Source of the DNA: Candidatus Omnitrophota bacterium | Lineage (GTDB): Bacteria > Omnitrophota > Gorgyraeia > Velamenicoccales > Velamenicoccaceae | Reading direction: 5' to 3' | Assembly: GCA_043819345.1 (NCBI GenBank) | Contig: JBDREX010000009.1 | Location: 39,911-103,910 of the forward strand | DNA: 64,000 nucleotides | Part shown: piece by piece, positions 15,001 through 57,000 of the stretch | Numbering within the stretch: position 1 is the stretch's first letter | Layout of the letters: the number at the start of each line of letters is the position of its first letter | Notes under the pieces: generated by a model | The model's database searches: none | What the model saw: the letters and a program-made list of their open reading frames with translations, nothing else | What the model was told of the DNA's origin: nothing | Made by a program: the position numbers and the translations under genes

Positions 15001-18000
15001 TAATTGTCAAAAGGCTAAAGAATAAAGCACCATATTTATTTATAAAACGCGGATTCCGCGGACGAAAAATAAGCTGTTTATTGTCTTCGAGCCTGATCAT
15101 CCTGCGCTGTCCACAAGAAATCTCATAACTCTTTAAATCTGAATCCGTTAAAATCCAATGAGAAGGCGTTCGCCGCAAAGATGAAGAAGACACCACATCT
15201 GAATTCCGACCATTTTTTTGTGATGGACTGTCTATAAAAGGATCTCTAATAAAATATGAGGGAAACGGCAGGAGAAAAGAAAGAGTTTTTACAATTATGA
15301 GCCATCGGGGCAACCGTTGATAAAGATAGCCTCCCCAAATACTGAATTCAACCGCTTTGTAGCCAGTCTTTTCTAGCTCTTCTTTAGCCATAGCGCGTTT
15401 TGACAATGACAGGTAATACCAGAGCATCTTCCAACCATAAAGCACCGTTAAAACCTCAGATAAAGAAGGCACCTGCCCCTTTTCCAGACACGCGACAAAA
15501 CATAAACCTAAGAACCAAACAACTTTCGCGTTGCGAATATCAAGAGCTATGTCACACATCCGCGGATGCCACTTTTGAAGCTCAGAGAAAGAAAAAAGCT
15601 CTCTTATCTTGCGCTCGCCTAAATCAATAGGTGAAGAATTGTTCTCAATTGCTTGAAAAGTTTTTTCATAATAGGCCTTCCCTCGCCTAATCATGGTCGC
15701 CACAATATCCTGACTGATAGCACTCAGACGCTCATCGTTAATCATAACAGGCCAGCCACAAAGCTCCTCAATAGTCGCCACCTCAGCCCCCTTACTAAGG
15801 TTAACCGGGCCTTTAAAACTACTCACCGAAACCATAGCCTCACTTGCCACAAACACACCATCTTTATTTTTAGACACAAAGAAGCGAATGTTATAATCAA
15901 CTCCTCGATCCGGCACAGGATTCATCCGGCCGACCGCCAAGTCAGTTAAATGCTTAATGAATGAATATGTCCCGCCTGAATTATATCCACCAATCTCCAA
16001 AACACGAAAACCCAGCTGGCCATCATGCTCCTGTGTCAACAAAACATCAAAAGACCCGAAATCCATCCCCTCTTCCACATTCCTTTGATAAACACCATCT
16101 TGAATCATAGCCTCTTTCATAGCTGACATAGCTTTGCTAGCCGCCTGCTCCATTTCCTTTATCAACTGCTTTACTTCAGCACGCCGCTTTCTTAATTCAA
16201 CCGGAGGAGGTGGAATAATTCTCTCCTCAACAATAACATTCCTGCCTGCTAAAAGCATCTCAGCAACAATCTGAGCTTTTTGCGTAAGATTACTTCTTCT
16301 TGAATAAAAAACATTATCCCCACAACAATCATCTATAGGCTTGCAAACAATCTGTTTCAATCCATACCGCCTTAAAAAGCCTTCTAAAAATTGCTCAATG
16401 ACCTGTGTTAAATCATCCGTATAACGATATGGCTCCACATCAATATAGCTAATGCTCTCCCGGCCTTTCTGATGCCATTTCCTAAAAGCCGGGGTTTCCT
16501 TTGCAGCTGGATCCACCAAAAGAGCCATATATTTTGGACAAGGCACGCCAGCGTCTTCTAAAATACAGTGCGAAATAACTTTATCTTCAGAATATTTAAC
16601 AAAATGCACAACATCCACCATGGGCACACCAGATTCAGCAAATCTCTTAAAAGCACGGCTATCCGCATAGACATAAGCCACAGGACAGGGCTTATTAAAC
16701 CTAACAAAAGCTATTCTTCCATCTACAACTCCAACCGCGCACTTAATAAGCGGCACTTGTTTCCCTTCCACTTTCTTAAACGTAACCCATTTAGGATCAT
16801 AGACCCACAAAACATAAGCGCCGGCATGTTTGGCACCTTCCACAAGCGAAGTTAGCCCATTATGGTCAAAATATAAAGCACCATAACGGACAACAGCAAA
16901 TTTCTTATCAGGACCCAAATCGAACGCATCTATAAAAACAGGCCTTCCAAAGCCATGCGCATAAACGTCTTGACAACAGCGCAGATTCCAAAAATTTGAA
17001 GTGCTTATCGCTTTTGTCTGCGAAATTATCTTTTCATCCATCAATCCCGCATCCATCAAATAGCCTCCTGCAACTTCATAATAAAAATCTTTACCAAGAG
17101 TTGCCGCCTTTCTTATGCTATTACGAATCAATATCTGGCCGGGCAAAGACAAGGTCTCTGTTACAAAAAAACGAATAATCGCCCAAGCTTTTGGAATGAA
17201 TGATTTTTTATAAAACTGCCAAACATTGCCTCTCATAAAGCTCTTAACCGACCTTATGTTCCATAGCATTTCCATCCACAAGATGCCTCCAAAGCTTCGT
17301 ACTGTAATCATCTCAAACAAACGCGCTGCCGGAATATCAAAAAACGTAACAATGCCCTCGTGCAACTTATTAATAACTTCATAACCCGGCTTAGGATTAC
17401 TCTTTAGCAAATCAATACATCTGGCCATCGCATAAAATAAAGAAAACTCGGCAACATAACGCAAGCTAAGGGTAAGGCTATCAACTTCTATATCTGCCTG
17501 TAAGTAAAGAGTTCTAAGGGCCAGATAAAATCTTCCGGCATAAATAAGAAAATCCTCATCACAACCTCTGGCAAACTCTAAATAGGATTTAAGGCGATTT
17601 TTCTGTTCCAGATAAGACATATTCAAGAAAGCATTCCTCATGAATTCAGCATAAGCCATACATGGTTTTTCAATAATGCGCATGGCCTCATCATAGCGTT
17701 TCTCTAAAGCAAGGCGTTTAATCATCTTTACTTCATACGAAACTTTAACGCTGGCCGGCGAGCCAACAGAAAACCTGCAAGAAAGACAAACTGTAAGCCG
17801 ATCCAGAAGAAATGACGCTATTAATCCACACCACAAAGGCACCGATCCAAGACCATGCGCCATCCAACCAAAAGCGATCGTTGGTAAACTCCACACTAAC
17901 ACCCAAAAGGCCGGTATCACGGCATAAGCCAGAATAACAGCACTCTTACGCACCAATAAAGAATTAGAAAAGCGCGTCCTGCTCACCAACATCAATAATA

Positions 18001-21000
18001 AAGCGCCCAAATACAACGGAACCTGATCTCTTTCAGAGACACGGCAAAATAACGCGCGATCAATACAGATCTCCTTATCTGCTATACAAAAAAGATCTTC
18101 CCATTTCTTATGCTGAGCCCTATCAAAAGGCCTGAATATCCCGTAATAAGAGTTGAGGGCTCCAATATGGCCGAAAAACTTTGATAGGCGGCGATACACA
18201 ATCACGCTGACAATAGCTGCAAGCAATATAATATTGTTCTTTATAAAAAAAGGTTTAAAGAAAAAGAAACCTGCTGTCATAGCAACTACCAAGAAAACAT
18301 AATAACCTAATACCGTCGTCAACAAACACATCATCCCTTTATCTGTCAGGCGCGCATAAACGCCGGTGTCACTCCTAAAAGTAGAAACAAAAAGTTTTTG
18401 GATTATCTGCTCATCCATATCAATGGGTGAAGACAACTTAATATCTTCTGTTGGCTGCGCTAGGATCTGCTCAATAAGACTTATAGCATACGGCATGGCT
18501 ACTGACATCTTACACCTTAAAGAGCCGTATGTTTCATGCCCGTCCAAAGGCTCATAATCCTGCGGATACGAAGGCTCAATGTCCTGAACAGGCGAAATCC
18601 GTTCAACACGCCTGTTTAACCCAAGAAAAGAAAGATCCCTCAACACTCTGAGCCGCTGAGTTTCCTTCATAACAAAAATAAGGCCGCACTCGGCATAATC
18701 CTCATTCGTGACAACTTGAGGCTTATGTTTGGCGAGAAAAGCGTTTTTATCAAGCGCCTGCCTCAAATAGTCAACATCCTGCGGCGGCTCAAACCCTCTT
18801 GAACGCACCTCAACCTTATCCGAAAAACCAAAAGCAAGCAGCTCTTTTTCAAGCTCATCTTTAGCTAATGGCGATCTTTCCTGATTATGTTTACACATCA
18901 CAAGCACAACTAACGAACTTGAAAAAACAGCTTTTTCCAAATCCTCAGGCACAAAAACAATGCCACCGGCTTTATTAATTAACTGCTTAGCCATGTTAAA
19001 TCTCCCTGTCTGGAGATATAAAATACCCGACTTCAACAAAAGATTTTCAGGAGGAAATTTTTTAAGATAAGCCTTTTCTACGACAGATGTCAAAAGTTCA
19101 ATGGCACGTTTTTCACCCCAGTTAACCCCGTGAATTTTAAAATCATTATCGTCTAGATCATAAAATTCAACCAACTCCCATAACGCGGCTTCTTCAAAAG
19201 ACTTTAGAACATCCGGCATAACATCAAAAAGCTGATCGGCCCAACCTGTAAACAATACCTTGTGCTGAAGATCATAGAGATCATACCGGCCAAATAAAAT
19301 TTTTGAAATATCTAGTGCCTGACAGTAATGCTCAATCGCGTCATGGCAAACAACCTCAAGAAAATATCTGGTCATCATAGGCACAGAAAAACTCTTCATA
19401 AGCCCATTCTGGCTTAAAAAATTATCCTTTCGGCAAAGAACAAGGCTTGTCTCATAATCAACTGTTTCAGCGTTATGCTTCATTAAACTGTGATATAAAG
19501 AATAATGCATGCGCACATCTGCCTGATAATCATAGAAAGCGGCACTACTGGCATATAACTCACCCATTCGTTGATCTGTCTGAAATATTTTATTAAAATA
19601 GAAATTTTTTCTGGCACTAAAATACAATGGAAAGAGATTGAAAAGAGGGAGAAGGAATTCTAATATATAAGGAGGGGCATGATCCTTTAGATGAATCAAG
19701 AATATCGTTAATACGTGATTGACTTTTTCACAAGCAACCTTACCTTGATATACTTGTGTAGCCGCAAAATCATTATCTCGCGATTTTTTTATAGCCAAAA
19801 CAATCTTCAACGATCCTAAACAATTCACACGAGCCCCGAAAACAGGAAATGATTTTTTAGAAAAAGGTGGAACGTCCTTGTTTTGACGGTCAGATAACGG
19901 AGAGCTACCGCCATCTTGATGCTCCAAATCCAATAAATAATTTCTCTCTCTAGCCCGCACCTCCTCCTGTTGTTGCACTTTCAGGTAGATGCTCTCAATA
20001 TACTTCTCAACCTGTTTTGGCAATAAACCAGATTCCCGAATAATATCAGACAATTCAGTCCCATACGTCTTGATAATTGCTAACTCATCCTCATGTAAAT
20101 GATCTTTAACAGACAAGAACTCCTCTAGGGTTAATATCGCTTCATTAATATAAATTTCCTCTCTGACTCTTGAGGCCTTCTTTCTGGAGACCATAATAAG
20201 CGGCTCATTAATTTTTTGTAGGTGCTTATTCACCGCAAGTAAAGCCCTTCTGAGTTTCTTGACATCCAGGGAGACCTCCTTGGCTAGAGCCTCTACACTG
20301 TTCCATTCAAAACTCTTAAGCTCCCTACCTCTAAAAACAGCCCACTGACAGAGCACAACCACTTCCCTTCTGATGGAACAGACAATTTCTTCTCTCTTTT
20401 GCTCAAGAAGCAAACAATTAACCTGATCAATATGAACAGATACAGTTCCCGCGCTAATAAGGGCCTGCAAAGCAATGTCCTTCTGACATATAATAAGCTT
20501 CTTCTGTTCTGGAGAACGCTCAATAGCCCACCTATACAACCTATAAAAACCATCATCTTCATGGACAGAAACACCTTTTTTCTTATTCCGTAGCATCTGC
20601 CTATTGACAGCAGACAAGTTCCTTCGCACAGCCTTAACGGGAATTTTTAAAACTTTCGCGATATCAACCGGAGCCCATAAACGCACGCCATTTTTAGAGC
20701 TTTCTTTAACGCCCCACCTATAGATCAAATTAAAATAATACTTTGGATCCTTTATTTTAATTTCAGAAAACCCTTCCCGCACAAGGGCTTTGTTCACTTT
20801 CGGCAGCTGAACAGAAACGGTCGTATCATTCAACTTAAGTTCTCGCGCCAAATTGATTTGTGTCCACCTCTTATAGACCTCTGTACTTTTTCTTTCTTTA
20901 GCCCATTGAAATAATTTTGCAAAAGTTTCACTCTTAGATAAAGAAATAAGGATGGGGCTGCGGCCCTCACTCAAAAGCCGATTATTAACCTTATTAAACT

Positions 21001-24000: not shown

Positions 24001-27000
24001 CATCAGGTTTTATAGCTTCGCCCTGTGCGTATTTTCTTTGCAGAGCCCGGGTCACAGAATCACCTAAATACTCCTTTTGGAACTGATCCAGATATAAAAG
24101 TCGCTCCAACGTTCTTTTTGCTGACTTTTTAAACCCTATTTCCAAAAACTGATCCACAGCACATACAACAGCTTTAATCATGGCCAAACCACCCCAATCC
24201 ACCATAGGCGCATACTTATAGGTTTCAACAGACAGAAAACGATAATTGATCGCGTGCCAATCGTAATTCAATTCCAAAAACAATGAAGCCATGTCTCCAA
24301 AATCTTGAGCCAATTCAAAGATAAGATTTTGATTATGCGGCCCGTGTTCCTTATCAATGCAGTTAAGCAAATGAATATCTTTCTTCAATAATAAATAAGC
24401 GGCTCTGTCCCGCACATTATCCGGCGGAAAGTCCATGTAAATTTTCCAAGCATTAGTCTGCCTCATTAAATGATCCCGCACAGTCTCCCTGTCTTCCCCA
24501 GAAAGCCCCTCTAAAAAAGCTATCCCTGGCCGATAATCAAATCTTCTTTTTTCGTCCAGATGACGCATATAGAAACCAATCTTCTTCACCATATCTTCGG
24601 GATTAAAAATCTGGCTAGCGGGCCAATGGACAGCTTTCAAAAACAACGGAAAAGCTTCAATATGGCCATCCGAAAAAATTGTCTTTAACGTAATAATCCC
24701 CCGAATAAAACTCATCGCCCTAATATATTTTAAATGATATTTTCTATATAATTCTCTTTCCTGTACGATGAGTGCAAAAGCGCGCTTTAAATCATCTAGA
24801 GCCTTATTATCCAACCCAAAATTATACCGGGCCTTTGCTCTTTCGTAATAGAGCGAAGCCTTCTCTTTTAAACCAGCCTCTTCTTGCATTCGCTGTGTCA
24901 AAACGCTTATCCTTGTTTTAAACCGAAACCTTCTCAACACCTTTTGATGATTTAATGAAATTCGCAATACGTCAATTAAGGCTGCTTCCTGTTTATCCAT
25001 ATGAAAACCTTTAACGTATGGCACAAGACTATCATGCAGAAAACCAAAAATAATAGAGACGTCTTCATTGCCTTCAAAATCGGAATTCGTATATTCATAA
25101 AGCCAATCACGGACCCATCCTTTTTCATGAGGTGCACCAATACCACACTGATTCATAAGCTCTTGCTCTATCGTGCTAAATTCAGCTTTCCTCTGAGCAT
25201 TACAAAGCCTGGCTCTATATTTTCCCCCGCAACAAACAGCTAGCAAACCTAAAGCGACCGCCTCCGGAGCCCGGCCAGCCCCTATAATCATATGAATCTG
25301 GCCTAAAGCAAGCCCGACACCTGCCGAAACCTCACCGTGCTTGCGTAGTGTTAAATGCCCATTGACATAAACCCCTTTAGGATCTATGGCCAACCTTTTT
25401 TCCATCAGCTTTAAATCATCTGTTTCAACACTCATCAGTTTAGCCAGCTTCCTGATATCGGCAAAATGCCTGGAACGCCAGAGAATATCAATTTTGATCG
25501 CCTTCATACCGCAACCCAATTTTTGAGCCACCCGCTGGACTGTGCCAACAATATCGTCCAAATCCAGCTCAACCCCTTCTGCCCCTGGACAAACAACAAT
25601 TTTATCCATATAATTACCATCAGAAACAGACGGAAACTTATCGCCCTTAACAACAATCAAAACAACCTCGCCGCCACGGGCTGTCGGCGACATAATCACC
25701 CAGGACTGCTCAATAGGATCATAATAAACTTTTAGTTCTTCTGCCCCTTCTCCAAATTTTTCCTGTGCTTTGGCCCCTCCAGAGAGCGCATGCCGTTCCC
25801 TCTCGGGATTTTTTACAACCAAAGTCGTATTTGTCCTTTCAGCAAAATGTTTAAGTTTCGTTTCAACCTGGCGAATCATTTCTTTGTTAGCCTCCATAAC
25901 CAGATAAGGGCTATCTACTATTTGAGCCGCCTGCCATTTACCTATATGCACTCCGGTTTCCGCGATAAGCTCTTCCAATAAAGGATTATATTTATCCAAC
26001 GGCTGTTCTTTTTTCTCATAAATACCAGGCAAAAACAACTTCGTCCTAACGCTATCAATGCTATCAAGCCAATAGTCCGCGCCCGCCTCAAAACATTTTC
26101 TAGCACACAAACACACCTGCCGCTGCACCAAAGTATTATTTGCACGGCGAAAAGATGGCCAATGGTTTCTTTCGTTTCGGCCCACATGAGCCTTCATCCA
26201 AATGGGACTGGAAACCAAGTTCGTTTCAATAAGGCCTGCTACCTGTTTTTTTATCAAATCATATTTTCTTTTGTGGACTTCTAATAGTTTGGCCGTTGTA
26301 ACAAAAGATCCAAAAAGCGCCTGAGAAGTCCTCTCGTCATTACCAAAATAGATAAAGCTTCTATTGCTTCTCTCAATAGGAACACATTTCGTTTTCCTAT
26401 AAAGCTCAACACTCAACTCCATTTTTTGCTGAACAGATAAATCCCAATAGCCAGGCTTTCCAATTCTGCTGAAAAATGCAGAACTAATCCTATAAATTTT
26501 TCCAAAGTCAGCGGCTGATTTATATTGGGTCAGAAAATACTCAACAACATAATAAGCGGCCGCTTTTTGCTCAAGAGAATAGGCCTGCATCTTCTGCAAC
26601 AACTCATAGGCAAAACAACCGAATTCCTGCAGCTTTTTCCTTTTTTGTACTTCCTGAACCACAAAAGAAACTATCTCCTCTTGCGAAGAATCAAGTCTTA
26701 TTGCTAAAACTCCTCTGTTTTGGAAAGCCTCTTTCTGATTAGTGTAGCGCGGAAAAAAATGCATTGAAAAACTAAGTCTATAACTCTCCTCACGAAAAAA
26801 CTGTCCCAGCCGGGCCTTTATGAGCGCAACAAAACGAAATCGTTCTTCTTCATTGCCTATATCTTGTAAATAACCTGCCTTTTCCTGAGGATTTAACAAG
26901 TCTAATAACGGCCTCAACACGAAATCTTTGAATTCTTCCATAAGGGATTTTTGATCTTTTAAATAAGTCATTGCCATGATGTGGGCCATAATCAACAAAC

Positions 27001-30000
27001 TTAACTTTCTCGTATAGGCCCAGTCTGCAGCAGACTGAAAAAGAGCGGACAAACGAATGAAGAATATTTCTATATCAAAACCTCTTAAATAACAAATAAT
27101 ATCTGCCAATCCTACATTTCCATTTTTTTCGTTAAGCGCATACAAGAGGGCTGAATACTCTAAAACCGGATCTTTGTGTGTTAAGCCCACAACGCATACC
27201 CCCTGTTTTTCAGCCGTCTTTTTAAAATGTAAAATTTGCAAACGCAACTGCTGGATTTCCTGACTAAGTTTATTCTGATGAAACGTAATCCGCCTCCATA
27301 GCAAAGAAAGTTCCGACATCTGTGAATCCAGTTGGCTAAAACACGTTAAACATATTTCTTCTTGCTGGCTAAAACCAGCCAATTCCTGCTCTATTCCATT
27401 TAGTATATCCTCTAATTCCTTTACTCGCTGTTGCTGCCCCATAGATGCCAAAAACAACCGAACCTTTTGAATGGCCTCAGCCAACTTTTCCTGATATCCA
27501 TGATACAGCTCAATAGGGTGATTGGAAAAAGCGGCCATTTCAAACAATAACGAATTTTTACCGGCCTTTTGAACTTTGACCAAATCCGAAATCATCAATA
27601 ATGTATTATCTTCCCGCAAACATAGAAGACTGAAAAAACCAATATTTTCCTTTTCAAGAAGACACTCTTTGATCCATCCAAACAATGGAACATGAACACT
27701 TGAAACATTTTTTCTAAGCATTTTTTTAACTAACTGGCTTCGCTGAGCCAGCTCTTCGTCAATTCTTAATAAGCTTTTTTTCTTTTGTGAAATCAATGCC
27801 GACAAAACGGCTATACGTTTTTTCCACAAAAAAAGCTCATTCTTTAAGCGAAGCAAAAAATCTCTTTCGCGAATAAAATCTGCCTTGGTTTTTTCTACAC
27901 TATCCCAAGCCCCTCTTATGGCCTCTTCAACGGGTTTCAAAAGATCCCTTTTATCTTCCAATATCCGTTTTAGGCGGTTCATCCTAAGGACTTCCATTAA
28001 TACCTCCGGGCCAAAATCAGGCAAAATCATCTTTCCATCTTCACGCCCCTTATCCATCAACAAAACTAAAACACCATCCCGATAGCCAGCCCCTGTCGGA
28101 TATTCTTTTCTGGCAAAGACCACTTTCGTCCTCCCGGCAAAATAACGGACAACCACATATGTTCCATCTTGAATCCAGGCTGACCTCACGACAGGGTATG
28201 AGAGGAAAAACTTACCATCGCCATCATACAAGAAACTATCTTCTGCCAGCTGATCCCTGTTGGGTAACTCACACAAAGGGTCGCAACCAAGAAACTCGGC
28301 AATTTGGCGGTCTAAATCAGCATCTTGAGAAATATCAAAAATCAAGTCACGGCCATTTCTATCTGTAATATCTTCACCTTTCTGGTCTTTCATATACCAC
28401 ATAAGACTCGGCGAACCTTTGCAAATCTTTATAGCCACTGAGGCTTTTGGATATTTCCCAACAGTCCTTCGTATACCACATTCGCTCACTAAACCAATTG
28501 AATCTGAAGATGTATATAAAATATAACTTTTCTCCACATCTACATATTCATCCCTCCAATTCAAATATGTGTTAATTAGTTTTTTCTTAGGGTTAAAATT
28601 TTTCACATCCCCTTCCTCTAAAACTTCGTATAATTTACTAATCCTTTTTGACTCCCACTTCAATCCATCACGAGACACTTTAACTTCCGTAAAAAATATC
28701 TTTCCGTCCGGATTACGCTCAATCTTCTGCATGTGACAGAATGAATAATCTTTTCCAAAAACATAATGAGCCCTACCCCCCAGATTCAAAAATCCCAGAT
28801 CCCCCAATGTAAACCACCGTACCTGATGATCCGGCGTTAATAGATGGTCTTTTTCTTTTAAATTCGCCTCAAAAGCGATACCCCTCTTTTGAGAACAGCT
28901 GTAAATAATTGAAAACCTCCTATCCTGTTCCTGCAGTAGATCCGTGCAACGGCTAACAATGCCCTGATCAAATTGAAGAATGACAAAAAGGTAAGGAATA
29001 TCTCCATAATGCATCGTCCACAACCCTTTCTTATTCTGAGGCAACTGGCCGTCTATACCGGGTTTGCCTACTATCTGCAGTCGCATATTCTGCGATAAAC
29101 AGGCAATTGTTGCGCAATGATTCCGCCCTGTTAAAACAGAAAAAGATAAATCACCATTAAAATGGTGGCGGGAGCCTTCTTGCGACATATCCAATGAGCC
29201 GGTTAAAACATCCACAAAAGGGAAAATAAGGCTTTCCCCGGGATTCCTGGCTAAACCGCTCATTGGAAACGCAACACTTTTGTTTTGTATATATTTTTCA
29301 CTAAGCAAGCCCTGAATCGTCCGTCCATAATTGCCAAAAATCTCTGAAGCTTGATTCTGACGCAAGAGTAATAAAACGATAGCCATATGAAAACACCCGC
29401 AAGAAAGAAGAAAATTATTATGAAGACCTTTATCATCAATCAAGGCCTCCTTCAGTGCCTTGGCTGAATTTTCAGGATCAACAGCAAGGACTTCTTCAAC
29501 CAAAGAGCGTTTTTCTGCTTCATCACCTGTCATAAACTCTTTCCATAGCGCAATATTATTTGCCTCAACAGAACTACTCACGTCTGATTCTAAACCTGCT
29601 TTCAATTCCTCATAATTCAGGCAACAAGCCGATCCAAATTTGCCTGTCTTCAATACCTTTTTAGCGCTTCGTATTCTTTCAAGAAAAGATGGATGACCAG
29701 ATCCCCACACTATTTCAAACCAGGACGGTTCTAAAACATTAGTGTCTAAGACAACAAGTTTTTTCATCACTGAAATAAAAGCATGCGCATCGGCAGATAT
29801 AGATAAAGCATATTTATCAGCAGCCCGCTCTCCTTTCCTGCAAACATACTTCTCAAATAGTTCATACAATAACGACACAGGCAAAAACAGAAAACAAAAC
29901 CCTAGTAAAGCCGCATGAGTTGAAAATATTTCTATTTGAAAGATAGGCGGCAACCAGGCTGATCGCAGTAACAAAGAAAAAAGATATAACTGAACCCCAT

Positions 30001-33000
30001 CATATACAAATCTCATCCCTGCAGTTTTATCAATATGCCGAGGCTTCCCGTGTCCGATTTCATGCGCAACCACAAAACAAAGCTCCTCTTCAGAAAATTC
30101 TTTTAACATCTTTTCAGATAAGTAAATGCGCAGATACTTTCCAAAACCTATAACACTGGCTTTCCTGGCCGCAGATTCTCTTCTTTCCCGTAATTGATAA
30201 ATCTGCCTTTTTGGAAAATTTGTCCGGGCAATACAAGCGCTTAATTTTTCACTTACCCCTCCTGTCTCTAGCGGCATAGCTCTATTAGAAAAAGGAATGA
30301 AAACATACGTGTGAAGATGCTGAAGCAATAAATCATATGCCCATGAAATAAGCCATGCATATACCCAGGAATACTGTCCAGCGCACTCAAAACAAAATAA
30401 TAAAATCAAAATTTTAAAACCATCGAACAAACACAAACATAAATTTTCAGCACTACTAAAATAAGGATTCCCTAAATTTTGAAACATTCCACCAAAAAAC
30501 ACCGGCACCTCAAGGAGCCCGCAAACCCAGGCAGCCACACTTAAAAACATCAAACCACCCCATATTGGACCGTAATTTAAAGCTCTTACAAAATGATCAA
30601 AATAACTAAAACCGCCCATTGTAACTAACCACATCAAAATGGCAAAGGCAAAAATATCTTTTAAGACCAAGGCCCGCACCGCTTTTTTAAAATTCATCTG
30701 CGCGCGGCTATAACCATTTTCAGCATAGAGATCACATAAATCTTCAGGACAGGGCTTCCTATTACTTCTAAAAGCATAGGCATAATGAACGCATTTTAAA
30801 ACAAAAAAACCAGTTCTAAATATTACAATTAGGCCAGAATAGAGGCCCAGAGGGCTTGAAAAACACAAGCAAATACTCCTATATAATTCACAACATAAGT
30901 CCTTGGAATATGCCTGAAGGGAAAAGAAAAGAAGCTGTAGAGTTTGATAGAAGCCCTTAACACGATAGCCGGCCGCAGGGTTATTGCCGGCTATCCCTAA
31001 AACAGCGCGAGTCTGCCTCGCGTTATTAAAACCAACCGCCTCCAACTCATCCTCAGTGTGATTTACGCTAAGAAATGAGCTTAATAGATCATTCTTATTT
31101 TGCTGAAAATCCGAATTTCTCTTCTGAATACTCTCATCCTCCACATCAAGCGGCTTGGCATTAATCATTCTTTGCTTCGGGATACTGCCTTCACCCTGAT
31201 GCCCGCTATCCTGTCTTTTTCCCTTATTCAATTGCCACCAAACCAATAAAGGCAAACCAGCACAGATGCCAAGAAAAAGCAAAAAATTCATACTCGGAAT
31301 AATAACTCTACCAAGAGATGAATTGACCTGTAACAGCATAGCAAACTTCCTCTGCGCGAATAAAAGATCTTCCCTTATCGGCATGATAGGAGAAGAAAAT
31401 AAAGACATGATTTCCTGTATACGAATCTGTACCCATTGTTCTGTGGCTGATACAGGAATAACAAATAAATTGCCCGTCGCAAATCTAGGATCGGAAAAAA
31501 TATTATCCAGTTTATACATTTTCTCCATCAAGCCCGGAGCTGTTAAAATAACCTCATACTGCTTACAAAAAGCGCTCGCCTGACCACAAAAGCGAAAATC
31601 ATCTTCTTTAAGATCAAAGAGCATCTCTCCCTCGCCTATAGCTTGCCATGCTTTTGAAATCAGCTCTTTGACTCTTTCTTCCCAGTGAAAAGAATTACCC
31701 CGAGATACAGTTTTAACAACATCAACTAATATAACGCGGCGCTTAACACTCTCATGTAATCGCAACACAAGATCGCGTGCCGCTATTTGTTTAGACTCTT
31801 TATCATCAAGTGTCTGATAATGTGTCAAAAATAAAGCCAGTTCCGCAGGAAAATAATGAGTTTTTAGCCCCGGATAAAATTCAGGAATCGGCATAAAACT
31901 TAGAAGCGTCAGATACTCCTCTTCCAAAGCCCTGCTGAATACAATTGGTAGCGGCCTAAGGTGAAAACGGCGCAGGCCCTGATTAAGAATTAATCTCCCA
32001 ATCCTTTCATTAGTATCAATAAAAGGATGAATATGAACAAAATGATAGAAAACCTCTGCTAAAAACATGATAGCCTCTTGTGTGCGCTGCATCTCATCCG
32101 TAAGTACATCAATCCTATCAAAACCTTTATTGAGCCATTCAAGATAATCATTCATTAAAGAAGGAATTTGGTTTTGGCTAAAACCGCTTTGGGTATCTGT
32201 TGAGGCCTTTACAAAATTCCAACCGGATGTCACCACCTCTGAACGCCGAAAACCTACCCTATCGGCATAATCCGTCTTAATAGAGCTAACCAGGATAAGA
32301 GATTTAAAACAATCTAACAAAAACCCCGTATCAATCGGCTCCGTCGAATTCATCTTATTCGCAAAAGCCGCGACTTCTATATAAGCCTTCATTTCTTGCG
32401 CGTTAGCAAATAAATGCCCCATGCTCTCTCTATCCTTATCGGGCATGTATTCCAGCTCTATATCAGCGATAAAATCCAAAGGCTTCACGATAGACTTGAT
32501 TTGTTCCGCAACAAATTGGCGTCTTGATGCATTAAGAAACTCTTCTTGTTCTTGGCCAAACGGCAAAGACTGCAACCCTTGATATTTCGGCCAAATAGTA
32601 CCGAAAATATGGCCAGATAGCTTATTTTTCATAATAGCCTGAGATATTTCAACAAGACAGTCAGCATTATTACGATAGCGAAGGCCCTGCCAAAAAGCCC
32701 GTAACGCTTCTTGTTCTTCCTGCGAGGAAAATGAGAATAATGAGGAAAAGGCCTGTGCCTCCCTTAAAGATCTTTCAAATAATCCGAGATAATAAAAGAT
32801 ATTTCTTGTCTCATTCAATAACTGAGATTCTACAAAGAGACAGGAAAACCTATTCTTTCTTGATTTTTCCAAAGCATACAAAACCACCTGCTGAACTTCA
32901 TAACGCAAAGGCGAAGATGAAGTCAAATCCCGTACAGGATTGCTTACGGGCGGCATTACTGAATCTCCATGAGAAACCTTCGTCTTCTTAAACCAAACAA

Positions 33001-48000: not shown

Positions 48001-51000
48001 ACATTATTAAAAAGATACCTTCCATTATCGTGCGATAGCAAATAAACAATCCCGTTTCCGTAATACGAGAAATAGGCTCTATAAACATCTTGTCTAGACA
48101 AATTCCATACATAACCCCTTTAAGAAAAGAAGCTGCGTGAGCCAATCTCAAACGCAAAGAAGGTTGAAATTCTAAAACCTGCGCGCATGCATTAGCATGC
48201 TTAATAAGAGATGAAGACACCATGTTTTCCAAAGAAGGCAAGAGATGCATCTCCTGTGCCAAGCGCACGCTTGCCACCATCGCCAGAAAATGCCTGTCTA
48301 AATCAAATGCCTTAGACATAAGATGAGCCCCGTAAGAGGAATGAAACTCCGGAGCATCAACATTGTAATCATGACAAACAAAACAGGAAATATGTTGAAA
48401 TGGAAAGACCAGGCTTAAGAGCTGAAACTGTTTATATCTGCGCAACCACAAACCATTATCCATGCCTTTGTGATGGCGCAATAACCCATGCCGATTAATG
48501 ATTTCCTTTGAACCAATATATCTCTCTAAAACACCTTCTTCCAGAAAGCTCCACTTATCCTCCAAAACACTATCCTGAATCCGTAAGACTTCTTCAAAAT
48601 AACTCCGTTGAGCGCCATAAAAAATAGAGACGATAAGCCTCATCCTCTTTAAAACATCTCCCTCTGATACACTATCCCATTGTTTTCGCGTACCTTCAGA
48701 CAAATAATCTCTTATAACTGCATTCGCGCTATCAAAAGATGGCCACATGAAACGACAGGAAAAAGAAAATCTCTCTCTCAAGACAACCTGAAAAACTCTC
48801 ATCATCATGATATATGAAATAAACTCCCTCTTGCGGCACAAATTTTCAACCGCCGCTATGATCTTATCGTCAATAAGATCATAGCGGGATAAAATTAAAT
48901 ATATTTGCCCTATTTTTCTGTCAATATGTTCACACAAACTCTCCAAAGAAGAATACCCTTGCTTAACACAGGATTGAATCTCATGAAATCCTTTTATGTC
49001 TTTTTGCTGAAACAAACAATCCAGCTCCCAAAAAATAGAAGAATATTCCCGCATACAACTTTCTTTTATCCCCGGAACTTTCTGATAATGACGGCTCAAC
49101 TCTCTTCTCAGCTTCAAGCATGATTTCTTCAAATACAACCCTTCCTCATAACGCCTGACAAAAAACCATGCCTTATCAATTAATTCTTTAGCTCCAGAGG
49201 CTAAAATCTGTGCCTCACCCAAATTCCTTTCATTTCTCTTGCAATAATCCCGCTGAAACTTCTTCATCTCTTCTACAAGCGCAATAATCTCTTCTGGAAA
49301 AATATCAAAACTGAAAAATAAGGCATCCTGTTGTCTCTGAACACGGCTATCTCTCGCTAAACTAAAACCCATGCGTTCCATATTTATCATAGCACGGCGC
49401 AAAGGTGTAATCCGAATTGATGAAACATCACGAACAATGCTGTCTATAATAGAAAAGGCATGTTTTTTAATATAGGTAATGATTAGATCCATCTGTTTAA
49501 AGGTATCATTGATTAAAAAAGGCAACTGCGGTTCACCTTCCATAGCGCTGGAAACGGTTTTATCCAATTTGGCAATAAGATTTTCCATTGTACGCGAAAT
49601 ATCACTCCGCATGAGATCCGGACGAGCACTATATATTAAAGATTGCACAGCCTCCCAATCGCGGTAGTAACAGTTTTTTAATACTTTATCGGCATCATAG
49701 TCATCAAAGCTTTCCAATAAGCGCCATATGGATTCAAACACGCCAAAACCAAATAACCTTTCTGTTTGATGAATATAAGGAATAAGCCTAGATTGCAACT
49801 GTGCAAACGACAAAGACGCACGCAAAGCAAGGCCCTGATCACCAAATAAATCCATAACACGCTGTTGCACCAAAAACGGATTTCTTAAATACATAAACTC
49901 CCGTTTCGCATTCCTTATTAAAAAGATATACTTTAAACGACGCTGTAAGGTCGTCATATCCTCATGTAAAACAATGCGCTCAAGCCCATATAGCGAATAA
50001 ACCAACCGCACCGGAACATCTCTTTTTCTAGAAAAAATATTCAGGAACTCCTGAGAAGAAACAGTCGCGTAAGAAAAAGTTAACTGTGTTTTTTGACTAG
50101 AAAATAAACATATCTCACCCTCATTCCACAGTCGCTCCACATCATGCGGAGCTGCCGGCAAAGTTTGGAGCATCTTTAAAGACATCTCCTTTACAGCAGA
50201 CGAAGAAACACTCTCCAGCAACTCAGCAAACTCATTCTGGAGGTCATCAATAGTTTTAATCTGATTTTGCTTCACACGTTCATCAGGAAACCACTGGCCT
50301 AACCCCTCCGTAATGATCTGCTGATTTCCATCAAGCTTTATATGTTCTCTCTCTAATGGATCCCATGGTTCAAGCTTATATTCATACCGTTTTCCTAATT
50401 GAATCTTCTGCCAATTTAAAACAAAAACCTGTTTTCCTTGTGCATATGCCTGCCTGGCTGTATCAACGGTCGCGCTATAACGAGCACACTCAGCAATAAC
50501 CAATATCCTTGATAATCCACTGATAATTCTGTCACGGGCAAAATGCCTTAAAAGACAACTCTTTCTATCATAGGCAAAATCATCATATTCAGATAAAAAA
50601 CAACCATCAAATTGTAAAATCCCCTGTTCAATAAATTTGCGTTCCGGATGGCACGTATTAGAAAATGCACCCTGAGGATCAGACGAAAAACCATCCCCTA
50701 AAACAGAAACAACCCTTCCCCGTTCATCCAAAGCGCCAATCTCAGAAGCCAACTCACTGCCAAAATCATGCCCTGTGACCAATGTCCAGCTATGCATTGC
50801 AGCTGTTTGTGCCAAAGCCTGAACAACACGAAATGTAGCCAAGGTGATGCGCGTCGCACCTGAAAAGTTAACCGTATGCAAATTCCGTAAAACACCCGCG
50901 TTACCTAAATAATAAAGCTCCTGCGGCAACTGAAAATCTTTTTTCCTATACTTTTGCTCATGCCTGGAAATCATCCTTTTAATCTCCTTGCACTTAAAGA

Positions 51001-54000
51001 AGCGCATGGTATCCAGATAATATTGATCAACATAATCCATCGTTTCCGCGACAGAAGGAAATTCTCTCAGTTTAATCTTTCCCATATTAATAGGTGAAGA
51101 CGCCTTGTCTAGCAGGGCTTTAAACGCAGCCTGCAAGCGAGGAATTGTTTCAATGATGGGCTGACGCGCTGTAAAAGCCGGAAACCACTCGGCCAAACCT
51201 TCGCGGACAATCTGAAGGCCACCGTCTTGCTTAATACTCTCTTTCTGTGTCGGGCTATAAATTTCAATACGACCTCCTATCTCCATTCCTAGGCGAACCC
51301 TCTCCCAATTCAAAGCAAACACTTTCTTGCCTTGCATATAAGCCTGGCGTACCGTATCAACTGTTGCGCTATTCTCAGCAGCTTCTACAATCATCAATAC
51401 TTTTGAAAAACCGCTCAACATTCTGTCACGATCAAGATGCCTTATAATCCGCTCATCTTTTGATAGCGCATCCTGCTTATACTCTGAAACAAAACAACCA
51501 CCAAATTGAAGTATCAATTCTTCAAAAAATCCCCGATCAGGAAGCAAGATTCTTGGCAAGACATGCTTATTTCGTATCTTCAGCGCATCACCCAATACAG
51601 CAATAATGCGCCCCTTCTGACTCAACGCCCCTAGCTCTGAAGCCAATTCACTACCCCAAACATGCCCTGTCACCAAGGTCCAATCATACGCGGCGGCCGC
51701 TTGAGCTAGAGCATAAATAATACGTGTTCCGGAACAAGACAAATTTGTCGTCCCTGAAAAATTTATAGTCTTAACAAAAGATAAAGCATTAGAATTACCG
51801 TAATAATAGATTTTTTCAGGTAACTGCACATCCTTAATTTCATAGGGCCGCCCGGAACGAAATTTTAACCGTTCATACCCTTTTTCTTCATATTCTTTGA
51901 TCAAAGACGGAAATTTTTCTTGCACATAACTGGCAACATCACGCAAATAACTAAAATTCCGTAAATTCATCCTACCCTTAGATACCGAAGAAGAAGCACC
52001 AGAAACACCGGGAGAAAATCTCACATGGCGAAAATCAGGCCCAAGACCGAGGAAAAATTCATTAAGTTTTTTAGCAGATGCCTTCAGATCAATCTTACCC
52101 TCTTCTATTAATTGCTTAATCATCTTATGAGATGTAGTTGGCTTCCACCACTGGTGGTTAAGAAAATCCAACGACTGATTCTTTTTTAAAGCTACAACAA
52201 TACGTATTTTCCAGTATTTAATATAATCAAAATACTCATTCAAGACGCGGCGTAAAAAATCATAATTATACTCCTGATTATACTGAAGTAAGCCCAAATC
52301 ATTGAGCACAACAATCCTTTCAGGTATCAATTCTAACTTTAACGATGCCTCTGTATAATACCGCTTGTAACCAAAAAGATTTTCTTCTCTTAACCAACCG
52401 GATGTGAGTTGGTTAAGCTTTTCCCAGGCATCAGGCGGCATATTATCCTTATAAAATACTAGGTCAATCAGTTCGCCTCGCATCTCAACATTCTCATGCT
52501 GATTCACCCTGCCTATCTGCTTACCCATACGTTTTAACACCGGTTGAGGAATACCCTGCTGTATAAAAAATGCGTATCCGTAAACCTGCTCATACTCCAA
52601 ATATCCTAAATCATTCAATTCTGCTATCTTATCAACATCAACAGCCAACCATAAAAAACCGCTGCCATAAATTCGCCCATAACCATAGGGATGTGTTTTT
52701 CCAGACCAAAAAGAAGTTTCCTCAACCAACCCTTTCCAAGCTTCAAGCGGCATATCCTGCTTATAAAAACGCAGGTCTAATAAAGCACGATGCGCACGAA
52801 CTTCTTCATACAGTTTTTTTACGGATTCCTGAATCGGCGGCTCCGGCCTTATTGAAACAAGTGCTTCTGTCTTCCCTCTAACAGGCTTCCATTGATCCTT
52901 TAAAAACAAATAAACATATATTTCCTGGTTTACCTCTTTAGGTAAACAAACTATATTCCCTGGCCTAATCTGTGGGATACCTTTTCTGTTCAAATGGATT
53001 TGAGGATTAACCGTTAAAATTTCTCTCCACCGTGATCCAAGATCATAGGAATGATCTTTCGCTGTTCTTGTATTTTGAAAAATATATTTTGACAGATTCC
53101 ATAAAGTATCTCCTGCCTCAATACGACAGGTAACCACTTGTTTATTGCTAGGTTCATAGGCATAACGCGACATGTCTGTGAAAGGGACAGCGGCTGAAAC
53201 AGAAGCAGGCAGATAAAGTAAAACAAAAAGAAGGATTGTAATAAAGAAAAACGCGATTCTCAAGCGCCCATTACAATTGTTTTGTTTTAAAACAAGAGAG
53301 CCTGATATGCTTGATGATACATCCTTATCATCGTTATTTTCAGATGAAAACATGGCCCTAGCCAGATGAGAAAATCCAACCATACAAAAAGCATGTAATA
53401 CAGCAGCCATCATGACAAAATAATTTCTATCAAGAACCCCATATAATAAAATACCAAAACTCATAAAATAATACGTCAGCGAATCTTCATACATATTTCT
53501 AAAAAAGCAGCTACACAAAGAGTTAAAACTCTTTGTGATAACATAGCTATAAATAAGAAAAACCGCTATTATAATTAGCCTATGTGTAGAGGATCCTTGT
53601 TTATAGATATTCTCAAAAATTTGAAAAGGATTATTTATAAAGTTATCTATTGTGCATCCAATCCCAAAACCGATAAAAGCAGATGTAAAATAACATGCCT
53701 CCTGGAAAACTATGTTAAAAAGAAAAGTAAGCTTTTTAAAAAGAGGCGAGCTCGCGCTCAATTCTTTCTGGCCTAATAGCTCTTTTGATATTTGTTCAAT
53801 CGCCTTAAAAATATCGCGTTCACGAACAAGAATACTTGCAAAGCGCCACAAATCACTTGAACCTGAATCAATACCACTTGCTTCTAAGGCAATACCGGCC
53901 AAATAATACCCAAAAACATAGGGCCCTTGAGCCACAAAAGTTTTGTCCCTATCAAAATATAATTTTTCCCCGTCCAATCCTTCTCCGATAAACAGATTTA

Positions 54001-57000
54001 TCTGAATTAAATATGAGCGATCTCCTGTATTAACAAACTCACGCACTATCTTCCTACCAAAAGACACATACTCTTCTTCTTCCGCGCTCAGATCTGAAAG
54101 TTCAATTTTTCGGATTGCTTCAACAAAAGTTGCGCATGGATTTTCCTTGCCCTCATAACCCAAAATGGGCTCAAGCACATGAAAAGCTTCGTGACAGGCA
54201 AGCGCCATATAGTCCTTATCAAAAAATTCTGCTCTTAAATAAACAGCTTTACCAGGAAATGTAACAGCCTGATATTTCGCATATTGCAAAGGCACCATAA
54301 AAAGAACAATGGCTGTTACAACACCTGCCGTAGCAGCAATAGAATTATCCCACACCGTTCCTTTCCGCCTCTCCAAAGTACAAATAAAGATAGCCCCTGA
54401 CAGAACAACAAATAGTCCGACACCTACAACAGTTTTACAAACAGTATGCATAAAAGAATACATTAACAAATGCCAACCATCCAAAGCAAAAACAGGGCAA
54501 CAAGAGACCTGAGAGAATTTTTCTATAGCGGAAAACTCCTTCGTCAATAAATATAACTCACGATAATAAAGACACAACTGGCGCTGTGACAACGGATGTC
54601 TCAGAAAATAAAAGACAGCGATGGGGATAGAAATAATAGCAACATAGATTAAAACTGGCGTGATATTTTTAAGCATTGATTTCAGAAATCTGCCTATAGG
54701 ACTTGAAGAAGGGAGTAATTCCAGCATTTCCGCCAACTTAACGCAAGCAACCATATACCTAAAACTTTCATCCAAGTCAAACCGGCCGGCCAGCTGTCTA
54801 GCCACAAACGCATAATCTAAATCAAAAGAATCCCAGCCATATCTTGTCTTAAAAAGATTATCGCGACTGAGAGATAAATCCGCCGGAAAAGCCAATTTTA
54901 AAAGCTTAACCTGTTGATATAACTTTACATAAGACAGTTCTGAAAAATGCCTGGCTTGCTCTAATTCTATATTTCTTTCTTTCTCAAGGCCCTCCAAAGC
55001 AAATACATACCCTGTCTTAACAATCCGAAAACACTGCAAAAGAACCTCATGAAAAATATCCATAAGCAGGTTGGCCTGTAAAACACGCTGATTCCCCGAA
55101 GACTTTTCAAAAATATCCTGCACATCAGATGACAACTGTAAACGGCCATGATCCGTCAAATACTCTTTAATAGTACGAGAAATATCCGCATAACTTGACA
55201 TTTCTTCAAAAGTATCAAAAAGCACAGCAAATCTGTTGATAACAACCTGAAACATTCTCATCCGCATCAATTCAATCAAAAGATCAATATCCCTGATTTT
55301 AGAAATCATATTGGTCTCAGTCAGGCAACCTCTCTCTCCATAATTAGATATTAAAACCATCACCTCCGAACGAATCAAAATAGCACGAGCCTTAAAGCGG
55401 ATTAAAAATTCCTCCTGTTGGGCCATGATGCGGACAAATCTTTCAAAAGGCATACGGCCATTAGTATTTTCTAATAGAGATAGCACTCTAAAGAAATGCC
55501 TCACGTATCCTCGCAAACCATTCACATAAGAAGCAACAGACAAAAGCTCCAACAGCTTAACCTCTTCATCTGATGTTATTGGCCGAGGAGCAAAACCTCT
55601 ATTTCTTGGATAACTCCTCATCAACTGATAAGCATAATCGATTAAAGCTACAACATCAGCATCTTCTGCTACTTGCCGTCTTTGTGCTATGCTGCGATTA
55701 AAGCCGCTAATCTTATAGGTCAAAGATCTGACTTTTTCAAGCGTTTCTTCAACCAGCGGCTGCTCAAACCCGGCAACAATCGATCTTGTTTCTTTTAAAG
55801 AATTAAAACCTGGTACTTCACCATTAATCTCAAATTTCAATACTTCACAAGCCTGTTCCAGCTCATGAGTCGCAATCATTAACTCTCGCATTAACTCTGA
55901 GCAAGAAGGCCTATTGCGAACAACTCTATTTTTCTCAATAACATAAAGAAGGTCTGCTTTTAACCTACCTGAGAAAACCATATCTAAAATAGGAAATACT
56001 TCACAGAGATTACGCCAATAGGCTTTTTGTAAACGCAGAGGGCTTGAAAATTCAGTCGCCCCCACCACACAAGACAACTCTTGCACGAAACAGCTTCCCT
56101 CAAACATATGTAAATATCCCTTAAGTCCTGAATCCAACTTTCTGGCTTCACTTACAGGAGAACTCAAAGGATCAATTTCATCTAAAAACAAAGGCAAATA
56201 TGGCCTTTGATCTTTATCAAAACGGCCGCGGTTTTTTTTCTTGGCGCCAACAACAGACCAGCGCCGCAGGCAAGGCAATGACGGAAACGCAGCATTTTCT
56301 ATAAGTTTCATCGCCTCTTCATCTGTAAACTCAACTGTTTCAGCCGTCTCTTTAACCGCGGGAGACAGCGTCTGTAATTCCACCTTAAATATTCCCCGCC
56401 CTAAATCATTAATACGAACATCAAACAATTCACCTCCAAGATCATTGATGATCTTCGCGCCTCTCCCCCTCACTCTGCCCGGAGTCGTGTTTGTTGATAA
56501 ACCAGGTGTGATCAAAATATTGGCAAGATCTTCCTTAGAACCTTCGAAATAACAAAGATTCGATGTTTTAATCAAAAGTTGCCTACCGAACAAAGAAATA
56601 TCCAGCACCACTTCATTCTTTGCTTCATTAAATAAGAATCCTCCCTCTGCAAGCCTTTCTTCTATCTTTCGTCTCTGCTCATCCGCATTCTTGATTCTAT
56701 TGACAAGAATCAAATAGATCTGCCCAGCAACGATAAAAGGAATCTTTATTTCTCCAACCTTATCGGCTGTCACATCCCGATACTCATAAATATAATCTTT
56801 GACTTTCCTAATAGATCCAACACCGACAAGATGAAGAATATGCCTCAGCTTAAAAGATCCCTGTAACATCGTCGTCTCAGGTTTGAATCGAACAATATAA
56901 TAATGCCGCAAAGACACAAACAGCCAATACATCAAAAACACTCTACCCGTCAAAGAAAGCTCTTTATCGCGATTATCAACAGTTTCAAGAAAATCTCGTT

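Follow-up and report, generated by a model that had tools for sequence, protein, structure and literature searches.

A class of multi-enzyme giant open reading frames (ORFs) has been described in Omnitrophota (bioRxiv 10.64898/2026.06.07.730766; PMC10066038). The 64,000-base stretch of Omnitrophota contig JBDREX010000009.1 analysed here, called the window below, is spanned by an ORF that belongs to this class. As in the described genes, the ORF runs free of stops far beyond 10,000 amino acids (aa), encodes many hydrophobic helices, tiles unrelated enzymes, and is for the most part dark to Pfam with few close relatives. Our subject is a zinc metalloprotease module of family M48 inside this ORF, together with the short motif SS[P/S/A/T][L/I/V] that separates its units. 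It is an open question whether the giant proteins of Omnitrophota function whole or cut up. Their autoproteolysis and cleavage by embedded C39 and S8 peptidases have already been proposed, and the same source states that the cleavage points are unknown and that this blocks analysis (bioRxiv 10.1101/2023.11.21.568195). The texts on these giant genes name C39, S8 and a signal-peptidase-II domain, whereas the window ORF has M48; M48, the junction motif and the words 'junction' and 'linker' are absent from both bioRxiv 10.1101/2023.11.21.568195 and bioRxiv 10.64898/2026.06.07.730766. The embedded-peptidase idea is already published, and what is new here is an M48A domain in a giant gene and the junction motif. 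To the question of whole or cut-up function the gene brings 47 candidate cut sites and one candidate enzyme.

The closest described proteases are Ste24p and ZMPSTE24 of subfamily M48A (PDB 4IL3, 4AW6, 2YPT, 5SYT, 6BH8). Members of the Ste24 family enclose a chamber with side portals and clear clogged translocons in a catalysis-dependent manner (PMC6078402). The module resembles them in the order of its two Pfam domains, in its catalytic blocks, in its predicted chamber fold and in size. Ste24p and ZMPSTE24 are free-standing, whereas the module forms part of a chain longer than 21,333 aa, lacks the EExFGFN block and carries changed versions of DGSxRS...NA and LFDTL. The prenylated CAAX substrate of Ste24p and ZMPSTE24 would not be expected in a bacterium. 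Free-standing bacterial STE24 endopeptidases and M48 family metallopeptidases of about 400-430 aa align with the module from end to end, and none of the best 150 belongs to a giant protein. HtpX (M48B), Oma1 (M48C) and BlaR1 (M56) have in common with the module the zincin core, with HExxH and a downstream Glu in a membrane protein. However, the N-terminal helices of the module match the Ste24-specific PF16491, and no HtpX structure is found among the fold matches.

MARTX toxins, large clostridial toxins (both with an internal cysteine protease domain) and viral polyproteins also combine a protease embedded in a long, modular chain with a short border consensus. Their protease is a soluble cysteine or serine enzyme, as opposed to the membrane-chamber zinc protease predicted here. 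They are smaller by an order of magnitude, and cleavage has been demonstrated for them, whereas it is hypothetical for the window ORF.

The Ste24-type module and its reading frame

As judged from profile matches and a predicted fold, bases 29,567-30,859 of the window encode a complete, self-contained Ste24-type (M48A) zinc metalloprotease. A preliminary description made from the letters alone had placed an intact M48 protease, its hallmark blocks ordered and preceded by membrane helices, inside a giant protein, and Pfam and structure matches agree with it. The blocks HEIGH, GERAADKYA and GHPSFLERI, and a further HEAFH, lie where that description put them, all on the minus strand and in a single open frame. 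The profile search and the structure prediction that it proposed both came out in favour of the assignment. With a 733-aa translation around the hallmark blocks as the query, Peptidase_M48 was matched at an expectation value E of 1e-19 (71.5 bits for a gathering score of 20.3) over profile positions 2-184 of 186. Peptidase_M48_N was matched at E 4.5e-12 (46.6 bits for a gathering score of 27), over profile positions 6-95 of 179 only. A search of NCBIfam with the M48 region gave no match. The best solved structures by sequence (phmmer) were human ZMPSTE24 (E 1.8e-16) and yeast Ste24p (E 6.5e-8).

An AlphaFold2 model of the module, built from a 10-sequence alignment, reached a predicted local distance difference test score (pLDDT) of 66.6, with values mostly of 70-90 over residues 100-450. 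This moderately confident model matches ZMPSTE24 and Ste24p (4AW6, 2YPT, 4IL3) over about 415 columns with E of 5e-13 to 1e-9, and with template modelling scores (TM-scores) of 0.66 and 0.73 when query and target, respectively, are used for normalisation. BlaR1, the fold that comes next, matches only marginally (E 7.5e-3, TM-score about 0.23). Because of the Peptidase_M48_N match and the ZMPSTE24-like fold, the membrane helices are best read as the Ste24 chamber itself, and the type as M48A and not HtpX. A multi-helix region does precede the catalytic blocks, as the preliminary description had it, but is not a separate anchor; of its label 'HtpX/Ste24-type' the second half stands. Its span of 29660-30900 was roughly right, the natural limits being 29,567-30,859.

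Conservation was counted in an alignment of the module with 123 free-standing homologs, in which 45 columns reach a conservation of 90% or more; the module agrees with 25 of them. It retains all catalytic positions, namely H11313, E11314, H11317, H11322, R11388, E11391, A11394, D11395, H11436, P11437 and R11442, and the residues of the HExxH, ExxAD and HP...R blocks sit in invariant columns. We read this pattern as that of a probably active enzyme whose substrate-binding side has changed.

An exhaustive HMMER search of 1.84 billion representative proteins returned 3,349 relatives of the module, the best at E 3.3e-42. The best 150 of these 3,349 are all free-standing proteins of 291-674 aa, mostly 400-430 aa, with 22-30% identity; they align end to end with the module, from about their residue 2-7 to their own ends, and none of the 150 is a module of a giant protein. 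A word-index protein search for relatives of the module agreed with HMMER, while the same kind of search with a 900-aa query gave no matches. The module is a long-branch outlier among its free-standing relatives, is 19-21% identical to the solved structures, and has no close relative in species-representative genomes or in JGI metagenome contigs. Identities of about 30% to the nearest relatives are common to all modules tested. The divergence of the M48 unit is thus matched by that of other units and is not specific evidence for a new role. By itself the M48 domain is an ordinary though divergent member of its family. A recent horizontal insertion is not indicated, as the composition of the module (GC content 0.385, and 0.321 at third codon positions) matches the rest of the gene (module means 0.396+-0.023 and 0.367+-0.035).

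The frame that holds the module, minus frame 0, has no stop over 64,000 bases, whereas more than 1,000 stops interrupt each of the other five frames. Seven Pfam families score above their gathering thresholds, all in this frame. They comprise DprA (two copies), TPR, Fic, the M48 pair, GlpX-like and LMWPc, which are unrelated and of which none dominates; about 95% of the 21,333-aa chain has no Pfam match. A crude hydropathy scan, which is not a topology predictor, marked 56 hydrophobic 19-residue segments in 23 clusters along the frame. No plus-strand ORF of note overlaps the M48 region. That the frame is an artefact, made up of separate genes or of a mis-assembly, is extremely improbable. We found no support for this reading, and against it stand the stop counts, the sharing of one frame by seven families, the lack of any match in tRNA and Rfam searches of the 64-kb window, and the presence of a similar stop-free multi-enzyme ORF on an independent metagenome contig. 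Moreover, near-cognate start codons are not in excess at position 4 of the motif (0.53 against a background of 0.52). The same figures rule out internal translation starts at the motif.

The junction motif and module borders

The ORF consists of protein-sized units separated by the protein-level motif SS[P/S/A/T][L/I/V]. SSP[L/I], which the preliminary description had pointed out as a junction motif, proved to be a true protein-level junction signal, and the motif is broader than first described. SSP[L/I] occurs 20 times where 0.57 are expected (maximum of 5 in 2,000 shuffles), SSPI and SSPL being the two most enriched 4-mers of the protein. The residue after SSP is L, I or V in 22/23 cases. 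The broader motif has 47 occurrences against 5.1 expected, and partitions the chain into units whose length has a median of 323 aa and averages 444 aa. Its codons vary freely, with Ser encoded by TCN and AGY and Pro by all four codons, which argues for selection at the protein level. A motif acting in DNA or RNA is ruled out by this codon variety and by the absence of Rfam or tRNA matches.

The motif coincides with module borders estimated independently. Of 25 boundary estimates, 8 fall within 10 aa of a motif site, where 1.3 are expected, and 20,000 random draws never gave as many. When paralogous units are aligned, their motifs coincide, SSPI with SSSL at the ends of one pair and SSAL with SSSL at the starts of another. 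In the tandem DprA-like units the bounding motifs SSSV, SSPI and SSAV are spaced by 298 and 299 aa; the motif therefore marks module edges. At the upstream junction of the M48 module, residues 2-7 of free-standing homologs align locally to aa 11052-11057, which puts residue 1 at about L11051, the last residue of SSPL. In a MAFFT alignment the mode of the homolog N-terminus is aa 11047. The C-termini of the homologs map to aa 11447-11462, shortly ahead of SSSV. The phosphatase unit behaves alike: SSSL stands one residue ahead of profile position 1, and the 163-aa unit compares with a solved homolog of 161 aa. Thus in the M48 and phosphatase units [L/I/V] takes the place of Met1 of the free-standing homologs, and the gene reads like stand-alone proteins joined head to tail. 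A native N-terminus at the junction is not universal, since roughly 65 aa from the start of free-standing DprA are missing from the DprA units, and about 80 aa separate the GlpX-like match from its junction. Global alignment forced the termini of free DprA proteins out to its own margins and so did not map them.

Only one related giant gene came to light, through a profile of the two DprA units, on the 185,985-bp metagenome contig Ga0209083_1000049. A 20.8-kb stretch of it (L001) holds one stop-free frame of 6,950 codons; a second locus, L002, is the same gene (99.9% identical). L001 has a DprA unit at 47% identity. Over its 6,950 codons it shows neither enrichment of the junction motif, with 1 site where 1.5 are expected, nor an M48 domain. 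The motif is therefore lineage-specific.

Roles of the module and of the motif

In the mechanism we propose, the helices of the module, inserted in the cytoplasmic membrane, would make up the Ste24 chamber; zinc would be held by H11313, H11317 and E11391, and E11314 would be the base, with the site turned towards the chamber interior. An unfolded chain would enter by the side openings and be cut before an aliphatic residue. Such activity could serve quality control or the de-clogging of chains under insertion, plausibly useful with dozens of helices to insert. We lean towards this role, in which the module would be one cargo unit among many, a membrane quality-control protease and not a dedicated processing enzyme. 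It is supported by the nature of the other units, which are unrelated cytoplasmic enzymes (DprA, Fic, GlpX-like, phosphatase), and by the similar divergence of all modules tested. Several observations weigh against it. Apart from M48, no peptidase family was detected in the 21,333 aa, whether at E <= 1 over aa 1-19,400 or at E <= 0.01 over the remainder, so a processing role stays open. The aliphatic residue that closes the motif fits the requirement of ZMPSTE24 for Leu at P1', where the L647R substitution blocks cleavage of prelamin A (PMC6078402). The confidence of the structural model is only moderate. Lastly, the module differs in 20 of the 45 conserved columns: besides the deletion of EExFGFN, RERRES...KASV stands in place of DGSxRS...NAFF, with K11280 at the position equivalent to N265 of ZMPSTE24, and LSEKM in place of LFDTL. 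The module may therefore depart from canonical Ste24 in specificity or activity.

These losses also bear on whether the module still cuts. In ZMPSTE24 the N265S substitution leaves 25-30% activity (PMC6078402), and PMC5379977 attributes catalysis-independent roles to the enzyme as well. A weakened or repurposed module, its chamber kept as a membrane scaffold or binding unit with marginal proteolysis, would agree with the loss of several family-invariant positions, including the N265 equivalent and the deleted block. However, the zinc ligands, the catalytic Glu and the ExxAD and HP...R blocks have all been kept through divergence to 22-30% identity, which argues for selection on catalysis, and we consider this reading quite improbable. 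Greater weight falls to the alternative that the module is a dedicated self-processing protease, which would cut SS[P/S/A/T][L/I/V] ahead of its last residue, in cis or in trans, and so free the enzyme units. The standing of M48 as sole peptidase family speaks for it, as do the strong enrichment of the motif and its position at module edges. Since Met1 of the free homologs falls on [L/I/V], a cut before this residue would release native-length proteins. An aliphatic P1' suits zincins, L647 of ZMPSTE24 being such a residue, and the changed substrate-side residues could mean a new specificity. L001, over the codons seen, has neither the motif nor M48, but this argument from co-occurrence rests on two genes. 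If the Ste24 topology holds, the upstream junction of the module itself would lie on the membrane face opposite the active site. The ORF exceeds the window at both ends, so further peptidases may lie outside it, and cellular proteases are equally possible. Ste24 chambers are known to take in chain ends or stalled chains and not loops between folded domains, and a cut before Leu would expose a destabilising N-terminal residue under the bacterial N-end rule; both points count against self-processing. On balance we regard it as unlikely. The wider proposal, a bacterial polyprotein with a junction code that is cut by its own embedded Ste24-type protease and releases dozens of native-length enzymes and membrane proteins, is rather improbable. 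If true, cells would have their own equivalent of viral polyprotein processing, and the M48A family a new task.

The motif may also serve without being cut, as a linker, a helix-start signal or a modification site, the giant protein working whole with the M48 chamber tethered to it. Ser-Pro followed by a hydrophobic residue is a common helix N-cap pattern, which counts for this reading. The motif is not a feature of the giant ORF L001, where GSFF and GSSG stand on either side of the DprA unit, and hence is not universal. Moreover, peptides of a 39,678-aa giant protein have been detected in 'Ca. Velamenicoccus archaeovorus' without reported processing. However, the near-constant L, I or V after SSP, the strict conservation despite codon variety and the match to native N-termini of free-standing homologs suit a recognition site more than a merely passive linker. 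An uncut chain is possible but doubtful. As to cleavage of the motif by any protease at all, cellular or embedded, we judge the matter evenly poised, and for the M48 unit we retain the cargo role. The motif and its coincidence with native protein termini are the part most worth specialist follow-up. In two modules, M48 and phosphatase, the candidate site falls where stand-alone proteins begin. If the motif is a cut site, one message would yield fixed-ratio sets of ordinary proteins, and giant proteins could be split computationally into units fit for modelling. If it is not, it would still be a useful marker of module borders.

Other modules and observations

Table 1. Features of the window discussed in the text. 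Bases are numbered from the first letter of the window and residues along minus frame 0.
Feature	Bases	Strand	Residues (aa)	Remarks
Giant multi-enzyme ORF segment	1..64000	-		21,333 codons without stop, continuing past both window ends
HEAFH, second HExxH	54179..54193	-		within module aa 3099-3420; unsupported as protease site
Two tandem DprA-like modules	50192..51994	-	4003-4603	bounded by SSSV, SSPI, SSAV
TPR repeats		-	about 7730-7784	Pfam
Upstream neighbours of the M48 module	30860..32917	-	10362-10868; 10869-11047	Fic-like module, then 179-aa module with one hydrophobic helix; each bounded by SSP[L/I]
Fic domain	31979-32176	-	10609-10674	Pfam
Ste24-type (M48A) protease module	29567..30859	-	11048-11478	limits include both flanking motifs; 427 aa motif to motif
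Upstream junction SSPL of the M48 module	30848..30859	-	11048-11051	first membrane helix follows directly
Peptidase_M48_N (PF16491)	30500..30769	-	11078-11167	CAAX prenyl protease N-terminal membrane helices
Peptidase_M48 (PF01435)	29657..30271	-	11244-11448	catalytic domain
HEIGH	30050..30064	-		zinc ligands H11313, H11317; catalytic base E11314; aligned to ZMPSTE24 HELGH (H335, E336, H339)
GERAADKYA	29807..29833	-		presumed third zinc ligand E11391, plus D11395; ERAAD aligned to ZMPSTE24 EFQAD
GHPSFLERI	29672..29698	-		H11436, P11437, R11442 of C-terminal block; aligned to ZMPSTE24 SHPPLLERL
Downstream junction SSSV of the M48 module	29567..29578	-	11475-11478	
Downstream neighbour	26213..29566	-	11479-12596	1,118 aa, no recognisable family; ends at SSPI (aa 12597)
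GlpX-type fructose-bisphosphatase, partial		-	12746-12854	Pfam
Low-molecular-weight phosphatase module	18422..18922	-	15027-15193	Pfam match aa 15032-15116; 163 aa, SSSL to SSPI

The second HExxH of the frame, HEAFH, had been suggested as a further protease site in the preliminary description; no Pfam, PDB or profile-profile match bears this out. Two HExxH are observed where composition predicts 0.61, and HEAFH is therefore no more than chance gives. Pfam and PDB searches with the surrounding module were without match, and hhalign gave a probability of 0.1% against the M48 alignment. A single-sequence AlphaFold model of the module had a pLDDT of 42 and was unusable. A likeness of the HEAFH region to a repeat of L001 described below (VYLxxxFF...HE) is not significant, with no hidden Markov model match and an hhalign probability of 0.4%.

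The two DprA-like units are 43% identical to one another and about 30% to any free DprA. They read GHVWGSE where GxAxGID is usual, and one of their solved-structure matches is the DprA-like antitoxin ShosA. A protein search with the DprA profile returned free-standing DprA only, from mixed taxa, and species-representative genomes contained no close relative of the DprA module. In the Fic unit a degenerate active-site motif, HPFIDTNERIGR, replaces HPFxDGNGRxxR. The phosphatase unit keeps CX5RS (as CKHNQERS). A domain without Pfam match is present twice with 44% identity, at 63416-63772 and 45128-45478 on the minus strand (aa 77-195 and 6175-6291), and carries the block DWEKYNEIYLTxPRRW after a membrane helix. 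Residues 18400-20650 (window 2051-8803, minus strand) make up a long stretch of internal repeats, with many overlapping self-matches at 22-35% identity, few junction motifs and no Pfam family. The coding strand is skewed towards G over C across the 64 kb (G 15,725, C 9,782, skew +0.23) and also towards T over A. A mutation bias linked to transcription or replication in a very long gene could explain this skew.

Besides DprA, L001 encodes RelA/SpoT, PRPP-synthetase N, glucosamine-6-phosphate isomerase-like, HD, GHMP-kinase and HAD domains. A repeat of about 130 aa is found four times in its frame +1 from base 2 (aa 520-625, 2750-2900, 3205-3336 and 3890-4037). It terminates in ...VYLHPYFFTLDQTLQLxILYHELISHIAKGIRDEDAAMGDT, holds HExxxH and not HExxH, and has no Pfam or PDB match. 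The repeat stops a few residues ahead of the DprA unit and of the glucosamine-6-phosphate isomerase-like unit, and might be the junction element of that lineage.

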